The position numbers were made by a program, and so were the translations under genes. A stretch of 64,000 bases of DNA, from NCBI RefSeq assembly GCF_044324785.1, contig NZ_CP172127.1; one strand, given 5' to 3'. This DNA comes from Escherichia coli. GTDB taxonomy: Bacteria; Pseudomonadota; Gammaproteobacteria; Enterobacterales; Enterobacteriaceae. Below, piece by piece: positions 13,997-49,948 of this stretch. The stretch's first letter is position 1, and each line of letters starts with the position of its first letter. The notes below the pieces were generated by a model. That model was not told the DNA's origin. It saw only the letters and a list, made by a program, of their open reading frames with translations, and did not search any database.

Positions 13997-14160
13997 ATTA
14001 TCACCTTTTGTCTGACAGTTCATTTGTTGATGCTATCACGATATTCGCGATGCGGTAAATATATCAATATGTTGGTTTATTTGTGTAATACATTATTTCC
14101 CATATGCCATAAATCAGTCTGTTGACGATAGCTTTTTTCTTTTGTTATTCTGTTCCCGCA

Positions 14161-14470
14161 TTAACTGTCGCTTCGGCGACCACCAATGTTCCATGAGGCC
14201 TGTGAGGAACGCCTTCGGGTGGCCCATGTCGCTCCGGCGACCACCAATGTTCCATGTGGCCTGTGAGGAACGCCTTCGGGTGGCCCACGTCGCTCCGGCG
14301 ACCACCAATGCTCCATCTGACCAGTGAGGAGCGCCTTCGGGTGGTCAGTTTTACACCTCCGTAGCCTGAAAGGAGCTGTGCGTGCTGATGGGATATGTTT
14401 CCGGAAGTACGGGTAAATCTGCACACCTTTGCGAGCAGATGTCACCACGGTTTACGTGATGATGAAGGCA
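14161..14470. repeat. composite repeat copy 1: three tandem ~61-bp units (14166-14226, 14227-14287, 14288-14347) plus ~120-bp unique tail
   Basis: Directly visible; about 95 percent identical to copy at 16463-16773; each unit has GTCGC-TCCG-GCGAC hairpin and conserved GAGGAACGCCTTCGGGTGG core. Confidence 0.9.
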
Positions 14471-15074
14471 TTCCGGATTTCGTCCGGTACTTTTACTTTT
14501 TCTCAGCAGACTTTCATAAAAAATGCTTTATGGATCTGCGTCTTAACATATTTTCTGACTTTCCGCATAAGCTTCTTATGACTGTGCGCACGGCATAAGG
14601 CCATTTGAAATTTGGCCGCTTGCGTGTGTACGTGGAGTTTGAAGCAGTGCATGCGTCACTTTTGTCGGCGTTCACGCTGACAAAGTGACGCATGAACGTC
14701 GACTCAACGAACCCGCATAAACAGGCTCTTCACGGGATGTTTTTTAACATTTGAAGAAGTGACCTGACGTGATCGTTTTTTTTCAACTTCATTCTGTTTC
14801 GTAGTGACGTCTCTCCGGTAAAACTTCCGGAAAAACGTCAGTCAACAGAATATCATTGTTTTTTAAGGAGTTTAATGTAGTGAGATGCCGAATCGGCGAT
14901 ATATCTGACAGGCAGATATGTCGGGGGCGACCTTCAGAGGTACAGTTAATTCTGCGGCCGGTTAAACTAACCGGCTTGACACCCCGCAAAACCTGAACAC
15001 TTTGCGTTACCCTGACGCACAGGCACTCACTCACCGAAGGAACGTAACGAAGAACCGTGTCGTCAGGTGAAATG

Positions 15075-15123
15075 CAGATGAATTCTTCTGTTGTGTTCAC
15101 GGCACAACAGAAGAATTCATCTG
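15075..15123. promoter_or_regulatory. perfect 21-bp inverted repeat with 7-bp spacer, 52 bp upstream of recombinase start
   Basis: CAGATGAATTCTTCTGTTGTG - TTCACGG - CACAACAGAAGAATTCATCTG read directly. Confidence 0.5.
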
Positions 15124-15175
15124 TGTTGTGTGCTGCTGTTTTGTTTAGGTCATAGGTCATAAGGAGAATGTACAG

Positions 15176-16081
15176 ATGTCCAGACGTGAGAAATTGCTTA
15201 AAAAGGATCTGGTTGCTCATGTCCGAAAAGAAAAGGGGAGTTTTAAAAAGTTAAGTGACTATACAAGGATTATGCATCGATTCGCTGAAACGCTTGCTCG
15301 TCTGAATGTACAGATTAGTTCTGCTGCACAGTTAAAAGTTCGTCACATTGAATTATATATGAACAGCAGGACGGATGTATCAAAACGAACGAGAGAAAAT
15401 GAAATGTCAGCAATACGCGCGGTTTTACGTCAGGTTGGTAAGAATAAACTTGCCGATCCCAGCCATCCACGGCTGAGTAATAAAGCATTAGGTATTTCAG
15501 GTGAGAGTCGTAAAGGTACGAAAAGTCTGATTACAGACGATCGTTTTCGTGAAATTCTTCAGCGCATTGAACAAAAAGATAAAGGACTCGCTGCAACGGT
15601 TAAATTGTCGCGTTATCTTGGTCTGAGAAATGAGGAGGCCATTCAGTCCGCCAAATCGCTCAAAACATGGAAACAGGCATTAGAACGGGGAGATGAAAAA
15701 TTACGTGTTATTTTTGGTACGAAAGGCGGTCGTGAGAGAATGACCACGATTGTTGACAGAAATAATGTTATTGAGGCTGTTAATTATGCTATTAAATATG
15801 CCGGTGAGCATGACGGGCGATTAATCGACAGAGGTAATCTTAAGTCTGCAATGAATTATTATCTTAACTCATTGCGTCGTTATGGTGAAATGAAAGGCGG
15901 TGATGAGACACCACATAGTTTTCGTTACAGTTATGCCGCAAGTGCAATGAAATACCATATTATGAATGGTTACAGTTATCATGAAGCGCTTGCATTAACA
16001 TCTATGGATCTTGGTCACGGTGACGGCAGAGGACGTTATATCGAGCAGGTATATTGCCAGTTGTTAGGACATGAAGAATAG
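15176..16081 (+). CDS. tyrosine recombinase / phage-integrase-family protein
   Basis: 301 aa; SD AAGGAG; catalytic-type motifs R (LGLRNEE), HxxR (PHSFRYSYA), H...Y (LGHGDGRGRYIEQVY). Confidence 0.65.
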   Translation: MSRREKLLKKDLVAHVRKEKGSFKKLSDYTRIMHRFAETLARLNVQISSAAQLKVRHIELYMNSRTDVSKRTRENEMSAIRAVLRQVGKNKLADPSHPRLSNKALGISGESRKGTKSLITDDRFREILQRIEQKDKGLAATVKLSRYLGLRNEEAIQSAKSLKTWKQALERGDEKLRVIFGTKGGRERMTTIVDRNNVIEAVNYAIKYAGEHDGRLIDRGNLKSAMNYYLNSLRRYGEMKGGDETPHSFRYSYAASAMKYHIMNGYSYHEALALTSMDLGHGDGRGRYIEQVYCQLLGHEE

Positions 16082-16415: not shown

Positions 16416-16462
16416 ATTTTTTTGTTGTTCTTCCACGTAGTTTGTGCTTACAATTTAAACGC

Positions 16463-16773
16463 TAACTTGTCGCTTCGGCGACCACCAATGTTCCATGTGG
16501 CCTGTGAGGAACGCCTTCGGGTGGCCCATGTCGCTCCGGCGACCACCAATGTTCCATGTGGCCTGTGAGGAACGCCTTCGGGTGGCCCACGTCGCTCCGG
16601 CGACCACCAATGCTTCATCTGACCTGTGAGGAGCGCCTTCGGGTGGTCAGTTTTACACCTCCTGAGCCTGAAAGGAGCTGTGCGTACTGAAGGGATATGT
16701 TTCCGGAAGTACGGGCAAATCTGCACACCTTTGAGAGCAGATGTCACTGCGGTTTTCCGTGATGATGAAGGCT
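16463..16773. repeat. composite repeat copy 2 (same orientation as copy 1)
   Basis: Same three-unit tandem structure and tail as 14161-14470. Confidence 0.9.
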
Positions 16774-49872: not shown

Positions 49873-49948
49873 TGGTGCCCGGAGGCGGAATCGAACCACC
49901 GACACGGGGATTTTCAATCCCCTGCTCTACCGACTGAGCTATCCGGGC
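49873..49948 (-). tRNA. pheV: tRNA-Phe (anticodon GAA), variant T-stem
   Basis: 76 nt ending CCA; matches E. coli tRNA-Phe as recalled except T-stem GGTGG/CCGCC instead of CTTGG/CCGAG (compensatory). Confidence 0.9.

Follow-up and report, generated by a model that had tools for sequence, protein, structure and literature searches.

What does a perfect palindrome do when it lies just ahead of a recombinase gene? This question is raised by a 64,000-nt stretch of Escherichia coli DNA (contig NZ_CP172127.1; hereafter, the window), in which a palindrome at positions 15075 to 15123 precedes the gene for a 301-amino-acid (301-aa) tyrosine recombinase, here also called the integrase. A preliminary description of the sequence had reported a perfect 21-bp inverted repeat with a 7-bp spacer, 52 bp before the recombinase ATG, and had offered three readings of it: a tyrosine recombinase core site resembling lox, FRT, or dif, an operator, or a strong terminator. 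We arrived at another answer. The palindrome is probably a cis-acting stem-loop that operates at the RNA level, in the integrase-sense (+) strand. Comparison of homologous loci indicates that base pairing rather than the sequence of the arms is under selection, that the pairing is strand asymmetric, and that the position of the hairpin is conserved.

The geometry had been described exactly. An inverted-repeat search returned two arms of 21 nt each, 15075 to 15095 (CAGATGAATTCTTCTGTTGTG) and 15103 to 15123 (CACAACAGAAGAATTCATCTG), that are 100% complementary, and 52 nt (15124 to 15175) separate the palindrome from the ATG at 15176. It is the longest perfect short-range inverted repeat of the window. 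By our own arithmetic, the number of 21-bp perfect inverted repeats with a short loop expected by chance in 64 kb is about 64000 x ~30 x 4^-21, which is less than 1e-6. In the + strand, G.U and A-U pairs lengthen the stem to 27 bp (15071 to 15127). The stem is very stable, has 7 G-C pairs among the 20 pairs counted by a terminator scan, and is A/U rich at its base. Folding of the 57-nt stretch with DNA parameters gave -23.9 kcal/mol, compared with -5.4 +/- 1.7 kcal/mol in shuffles (z = -10.6). When the leader was folded as RNA, the stem was present in both the minimum free energy and the centroid structures.

The palindrome is carried by 53 of 5426 complete E. coli genomes, at a single locus in each, and no partner copy was found elsewhere in these 53 genomes. 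The common laboratory strain NC101 is a carrier. The 64-kb window likewise holds no further copy of the arms with up to 3 mismatches, and 100 shuffles of the search gave 0 matches. Thus, the second copy for which the preliminary description had proposed a search was found neither in the window nor in the carrier genomes. The same observations rule out a dispersed repeat or an element of the repetitive extragenic palindromic type.

We then compared the palindrome with the corresponding position in three sets of loci: E. coli relatives with about 79% DNA identity; homologues on plasmids, mostly typed MOBH and/or MPF_F/MPF_G, with 43 to 54% protein identity; and 80 loci from different Enterobacterales genomes with 46 to 57% protein identity. 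The sequence between the start codon and EFASI, a conserved motif upstream of the integrase gene, was collected from 87 loci and comprised 83 distinct gap sequences. About half of the loci have a hairpin of 17 to 28 bp at the position of the palindrome, with unrelated stem sequences. Hairpins of -15 kcal/mol or lower were found in 47% of the 83 distinct gaps and in 18% of shuffles; at -25 kcal/mol or lower, the values were 28% and 1%. Measured from its 3' end, the hairpin is a median of 16 nt away from the start codon, and the Shine-Dalgarno (SD) sequence often follows it directly. Stems have 20 to 28 pairs in three hairpin groups (G1, which is the E. coli group of the window, and two further groups, G2 and G3) and in locus L010, while in other clades they contain internal loops and some are shorter. 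The apex GUUCAC(R) is common to G1, G2, and G3, whose stems are unrelated in sequence.

Across clades, the hairpins are not sequence homologous: when the gaps of 39 loci were aligned with MAFFT, the first ~40 nt aligned and the hairpins did not. Therefore, we counted covariation within alignable groups only. An alignment of the three hairpin groups (A4) was one column out of register, and a group of 10 sequences was for this reason counted separately. Among E. coli and metagenome copies we found four stem haplotypes, all of them perfect: GAATTCTTCTG/CAGAAGAATTC, GAATTTTTCTG/CAGAAAAATTC, GAATTTTGCTG/CAGCAAAATTC, and GAGTTTTTCTG/CAGAAAAACTC. These differ by three independent double changes and by no one-sided change, and the loop varies between A and G. 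The changes include a T-A to G-C transversion pair, which has no wobble intermediate. In the sister group of 10 loci, 98.1% of cells were paired, compared with 34 to 43% when the partner was slid. Both sides had changed in 10 of its 21 pairs, and the observed covariation score was reached in 0 of 500 shuffles; a U.G pair beside the apex is invariant. A covariance model built from the 10 sister hairpins (R1) recovered its training sequences alone under default filters, missing the window hairpin and yielding no additional copies, and is too sequence specific to conclude from.

The pairing also differs between the strands. Among 37 distinct strong hairpins, 34 are more stable on the + strand. 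The folds of the family contain 92 G.U pairs in the + strand but only 15 in the - strand, and we estimate that G.U makes up roughly 12% of pairs, a fraction typical of RNA.

In which form would this strand fold? The palindrome belongs to a module whose order is a sigma-70 promoter, an array of STAXI repeats, a hairpin at 14653 to 14691, EFASI, the palindrome hairpin, the SD sequence, the integrase gene, and a second STAXI array (Table 1). We aligned the promoter region from 13 diverse loci that are otherwise unalignable, with a mean identity of 33%. In all 13, TTGAC and TAnnnT with a spacing of 17 to 18 nt immediately precede the start of STAXI, and an upstream TG is often present. Conservation of the promoter at this place implies that a transcript has STAXI at its 5' end, and the promoter-like site of the window is the probable start of the leader transcript. 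The STAXI repeats contain C-UUCG-G tetraloops, which their discoverers took to favor RNA (PMC2864571). Because the promoter is conserved on this strand, STAXI has UUCG tetraloops, and the hairpin lies near the SD sequence, we consider RNA the likeliest form.

The palindrome hairpin would then be the last structured element of a roughly 1-kb integrase mRNA leader, which would run from the sigma-70 promoter through the STAXI repeats, the GCGTCACTT…AAGTGACGC hairpin, and EFASI to the palindrome hairpin, the SD sequence, and the integrase. This leader precedes the integrase gene on MOBH-type conjugative elements of Enterobacterales. The mechanism that we favor is that the hairpin acts in cis on the transcript as an RNase III-type processing or stability signal. 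RNase III classically requires double-stranded RNA of 20 bp or more, about two turns of the helix, with few interruptions, and the window hairpin has 21 perfect pairs, or 27 with wobble pairs. The idea arises because this uninterrupted duplex sits between EFASI and the ribosome-binding site. Sense-strand pairing is kept by compensatory change, as in a cis-acting leader RNA. Processing would detach the integrase mRNA from the upstream STAXI/EFASI RNA and so set the integrase level. A close alternative is that the hairpin would serve as a 5'-proximal protective or insulating structure directly upstream of the SD sequence.

Several points weigh against a leader RNA stem-loop and against its details. 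About half of the family, in clades with gaps of 56 to 106 nt, has no long hairpin, and the hairpin is thus dispensable for the module. The choice of RNase III specifically is a guess from stem length only, and it carries perhaps half of the confidence that we place in an RNA-level stem-loop. One transcript is presumed to run through STAXI, EFASI, the hairpin, and the integrase gene. The conserved promoter on the same strand lies about 950 nt upstream of the palindrome, and between them stands a terminator-like hairpin (14473 to 14487) that, if efficient, could halt many transcripts before EFASI and the palindrome. Replication template-switch correction can keep DNA palindromes perfect, in which case the E. 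coli compensatory changes, considered by themselves, would count for less. G.T pairs form in single-stranded DNA (ssDNA) too, so strand bias alone cannot separate RNA from + strand ssDNA. Finally, transcription finds support in the detection of EFASI and STAXI signals in an E. coli strain by reverse transcription-quantitative PCR (RT-qPCR) (PMC12370729), but this assay is not strand specific and the hairpin is outside its coverage.

If the hairpin were a factor-independent (intrinsic) terminator or an attenuator, the EFASI RNA would stop there and less transcription would continue into the integrase gene. The position right after a putative small RNA is as expected for such a role, a folded + strand hairpin is what has been selected, and a lax terminator scan flags the window hairpin, assigning it a stem of 20 bp and GTGTTGTGTG as its tail. 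However, this tail is a mixture of G and T, and the 79%-identical relatives have CTGTACGTACAGCTGTTT in its place. A T-rich tail (at least 5 T in the 8 nt past the stem) follows 1 of the 37 distinct hairpins, none has at least 6 T, and a T run of at least 4 occurs in 1. In many loci the stem runs straight into the SD sequence (GGAGA…), and a stem of 21 to 27 bp with an A/U-rich base agrees only in part with typical terminators, whose stems are short and GC rich. We therefore regard a terminator as unlikely, although the strong terminator of the preliminary description correctly treats the element as a folded hairpin. The + strand could also fold as ssDNA while the element is transferred by conjugation or replicated, and could then serve as a priming signal, as a landmark in ssDNA, or as a hairpin that the recombinase uses as substrate. 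The element does lie on an integrating conjugative element (ICE), in a region with ardA and STAXI, for which a role in ssDNA was raised by the discoverers (PMC2864571). Covariation and strand bias are equally compatible with folded ssDNA, and the hairpin is very stable with DNA parameters. Nevertheless, the conserved sigma-70 promoter would drive the same strand as RNA, the estimated G.U fraction is typical of RNA, and nearness to the SD sequence fits an mRNA feature. In F-like plasmids, leading-region genes are read from the transferred strand; if the region here is a leading region, the transferred strand would be the - strand, in which the family hairpins are weaker. On balance we find an ssDNA role doubtful. 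A special case has only a very slim chance of being right. In it the hairpin, perhaps together with STAXI, the GCGTCACTT…AAGTGACGC element, and EFASI, is a folded-ssDNA recombination site like attC or that of CTX-phi, and the folded stem of 21 to 27 bp would offer the adjacent recombinase a duplex-like substrate during transfer or rolling-circle replication.

Could the palindrome instead be bound by protein as duplex DNA, either as a lox-, FRT-, dif-, or cer-like core site of the 301-aa recombinase or as an autoregulatory operator? Inverted arms around a 7-bp center adjoin a tyrosine recombinase gene with intact candidate catalytic residues. Dimer resolution needs one copy per element, so the missing second copy does not exclude such a site, although a resolution site is then the only kind that would fit. 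However, the arms are variable and the center, with the apex GTTCAC, is conserved, which is the reverse of core sites, and every arm change is mirrored. The family-wide strand asymmetry of G.U pairs is meaningless for duplex binding. The recombinase is conserved although many homologues have imperfect hairpins or none, and the breaks in plasmid homology near the palindrome are not site-specific crossovers. For an operator, the promoter scan of the window found no promoter overlapping the palindrome to repress. Hence a duplex site is improbable in our judgment, and neither the core site nor the operator of the preliminary description is upheld. It is conceivable in principle that the palindrome has no function and is kept perfect by replication template switching (quasipalindrome correction). 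All E. coli haplotypes are indeed perfect, including the one with the T-A to G-C transversion pair, as templated correction would give. Yet hairpins of unrelated sequence recur at the same position across genera far above the shuffled expectation, imperfect members of the family show the G.U bias on one strand, and clades with integrases only ~51 to 54% identical to that of the window have kept the apex. Recurrence across genera, one-strand G.U bias, and a conserved apex argue for selection, and we consider a functionless palindrome highly improbable.

Some plasmid megablast matches end at the palindrome, and we inspected them as candidate recombination junctions. This interpretation was rejected for both plasmids concerned. 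On E. coli plasmid pE32-3 (L091, 2820 to 2830), which shows insertion sequence (IS) insertion or truncation, the EFASI fragment ends after CAGATG, the first 6 nt of the left arm. Beyond CAGATG is unrelated sequence with transposase-like open reading frames (ORFs), as read from translations, and IS100 lies on the other side; the locus represents what is left of the module on an IncK2/Z plasmid. On E. coli plasmid pB39_V (L092, 2960 to 3240), the junction is an unrelated one, 8 nt upstream. EFASI is followed there by tandem repeats of ~125 nt (TATTCCGGCGAACTCATATTGACGC…), with no hairpin and no integrase. Many of the 571 E. coli records in the band of 80 to 90% identity may be matches of this second kind.

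A 143-aa ORF on the - strand (14789 to 15220) covers EFASI and the palindrome; RefSeq does not annotate this ORF, which is probably spurious. Some relatives (L003 and L004, 2946 to 3230) have a minus-strand "hypothetical protein" annotated just upstream of, or overlapping, EFASI. The window contains another long inverted repeat at 34042 to 34089, with 20-nt arms that are 95% complementary and 8 nt apart (GCCACACACCGGATTGGCAC / GTGCCAATCCGGTTTGTGGC).

The preliminary description had also mentioned a second near-perfect inverted repeat near 14648 to 14690. This repeat is present, with arms at 14647 to 14662 and 14682 to 14697 that are 94% complementary. In 86 of 89 loci, with integrase identity down to 43%, its outer arms, GCGTCACTT and AAGTGACGC, recur at a distance of 94 to 198 nt ahead of EFASI. 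The outer 9 pairs are invariant in sequence, and the tenth covaries between U-A and G-C (15:14). Such strict conservation of the arms suggests recognition by a protein or by another RNA, and this hairpin is a better candidate for a specific binding site than the palindrome at 15075. A third AAGTGAC half-site (14757 to 14763) had suggested a protein-binding array; the array was rejected, since the half-site is absent in 78 of 86 loci and lacks conservation beyond the E. coli clade.

Table 1. Features of the module in the window (positions are those of the 64-kb stretch)
Feature	Position	Strand	Description
Sigma-70-type promoter-like site	14122..14151	+	TTGACG, 18 nt, TG-TATTCT; directly upstream of first STAXI array; promoter scan
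STAXI array, first	14166..14461	+	Rfam RF01728, 68.6 + 61.9 bits (gathering 40.5); 61-nt direct repeats
Second hairpin	14653..14691	+	GCGTCACTT, variable inner stem-loop, AAGTGACGC
EFASI motif	14878..15031	+	Rfam RF02957, 46.3 bits, below gathering 51.2
Conserved 3' extension of EFASI	15032..15070	+	…AACCGTGTCGTCAGG…; first ~40 columns of alignment A3, 39 loci
Palindrome	15075..15123	+	21-bp perfect stem, center TTCACGG, 7 nt; + strand extension to 27 bp
Shine-Dalgarno AAGGAG	15161..15166	+	9 nt before integrase ATG; read from sequence
Tyrosine recombinase (integrase) gene, 301 aa	15176..16081	+	Pfam Integrase_1 + Phage_int_SAM_2
STAXI array, second	16468..16773	+	Rfam RF01728, 68.6 + 66.3 bits; downstream of integrase gene

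Rfam already lists the module of STAXI, EFASI, and integrase as motifs of unknown function. The name EFASI abbreviates "Enterobacteriaceae, Frequently Around STAXI and Integrases," and the Rfam entry locates the motif after STAXI and ahead of integrase genes, with function unknown (PMC12370729). Of the 80 genome loci, 79 have a same-strand EFASI match above the gathering threshold ahead of the integrase homologue, as does every plasmid and E. coli locus tested, and STAXI flanks the integrase gene on both sides in most homologous loci. In the window, 43 nt separate the end of the Rfam EFASI match from the palindrome. The hairpin is thus outside the EFASI model, and no Rfam family matched either the palindrome hairpin or the element at 14653 to 14691. 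In the literature searched, EFASI and STAXI are mentioned as RNA motifs by PMC12370729 and PMC2864571 only. The palindrome hairpin, the hairpin at 14653 to 14691, and the conserved promoter are without description in that literature, which did not include the supplement of a 2017 motif paper. This 2017 paper is presumably the source of EFASI; its main text does not contain EFASI.

Further details of the module deserve mention. Directly upstream of EFASI, no promoter is conserved among the homologous loci, and solely an SD-like AAGGAG is conserved there. This AAGGAG lies at the 5' edge of EFASI (14865 to 14880 in the window) and is present in most loci; the start-stop pair (ATG TAG) that follows it occurs in the window and the E. 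coli relatives only and is absent from the other loci. Just past the first STAXI array, the terminator-like hairpin CCGGATTTCGTCCGG is followed by TACTTTTACTTTTT, a T-rich tail (14473 to 14487). Ahead of the second STAXI array we read, by eye only, a similar promoter-like sequence, TTGTTC, 18 nt, and TACAAT, at 16426 to 16454. Two loci have cargo ORFs between EFASI and the integrase gene (L048, 750 to 2491, 486 aa, opposite strand; L055, 988 to 2491, 381 aa, same strand). Thus, the linkage of EFASI and integrase is breakable. In the integrase clade without the long hairpin, the module is in several loci (L060, L070, and L072 to L090) often near C4 antisense RNA, isrK, the radC motif, retron msr, or tRNA. 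This suggests a genomic-island or prophage-like context for that clade, unlike the ICE and plasmid context of the window.

The window is an ICE in an E. coli chromosome. A 1.6-kb query from it was 100% identical to the E. coli TUM9803 chromosome. According to RefSeq, the neighbors of the locus are TIGR037xx ICE genes and a gene with a TraG N-terminal domain upstream and ardA downstream, with type IV pilus genes further on. A tRNA gene on the - strand (49876 to 49948) likely marks the integration end of the ICE. The preliminary description had called the gene next to the palindrome a recombinase, and rightly so. The 301-aa ORF matches the Pfam families Integrase_1 PF12835 (5e-56) and Phage_int_SAM_2 PF12834, and R151, K183, H247, R250, H281, and Y293 are invariant in the homologue alignment A2. 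The tyrosine recombinase motif pattern (R-K-H-R-H/W-Y) points to these six as candidate catalytic residues. SD-like sequences stand ahead of the start codon in the homologues as well. RefSeq names the product "integrase domain-containing protein," and sequence searches gave no informative NCBIfam or PDB match; the protein thus has no NCBIfam name and no solved relative. In their titles and abstracts, papers citing PF12835 treat the family merely as a marker. The integrase belongs to an uncharacterized tyrosine recombinase family.

STAXI and EFASI were defined bioinformatically and have no known function. In many conjugative elements and plasmids of enterobacteria, they are markers of the region for establishment and anti-restriction. 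Our analysis widens the picture of this module to a conserved sigma-70 promoter, two conserved hairpins without an Rfam match, and an uncharacterized recombinase, all on one strand. It offers a concrete model for a widespread, uncharacterized module, in which a long structured leader would control the recombinase, and it removes as wrong the tempting annotation of the palindrome as a lox-like site.

How does the palindrome compare with known systems? It lies within the EFASI (RF02957)/STAXI (RF01728) module, where STAXI arrays lie on either side of the integrase gene and EFASI precedes it in the same orientation, and differs from what is catalogued in that the hairpin falls outside the Rfam EFASI match. 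Rho-independent terminators share with it a stable hairpin that follows a putative small RNA on the transcribed strand, and the scan flags it as one; in contrast, 36 of the 37 family hairpins have no U tract, and the stem reaches two- to threefold the usual length. Tyrosine recombinase core sites (loxP, FRT, dif, cer, and rfsF) have inverted arms, a 6- to 8-bp center, and an adjoining recombinase gene in common with it. However, their arms are 11 to 13 bp, compared with 21 bp here, and the arms here vary with pairing kept, around a conserved center and with strand asymmetry. Integron attC and CTX-phi attP are folded-ssDNA recombination sites. Like the palindrome, they are hairpins conserved in structure and variable in sequence, next to a tyrosine recombinase on an element with a single-stranded stage. 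Unlike theirs, the stem here is free of conserved extrahelical bases and of an internal unpaired spacer. Each element has a single copy, a promoter would have the same strand transcribed, and no recombination junction was seen at the hairpin among the inspected breaks in plasmid homology.

Conserved leader stem-loops are well known as a kind of feature, and a leader hairpin alone is ordinary biology. The processing hairpins of RNase III in leaders and between cistrons, such as those of the lambda N leader, T7 R1.1, and the pnp leader, and lambda sib for int, are long near-uninterrupted duplexes of at least 20 bp in a leader near the ribosome-binding site of the regulated gene, as the palindrome hairpin would be. 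Its family departs from them in that the stems of some members are shorter or interrupted by internal loops. Lambda uses a hairpin of this type to control the expression of its integrase. The sib hairpin lies 3' of int, whereas the hairpin of the window lies 5' of the integrase gene.

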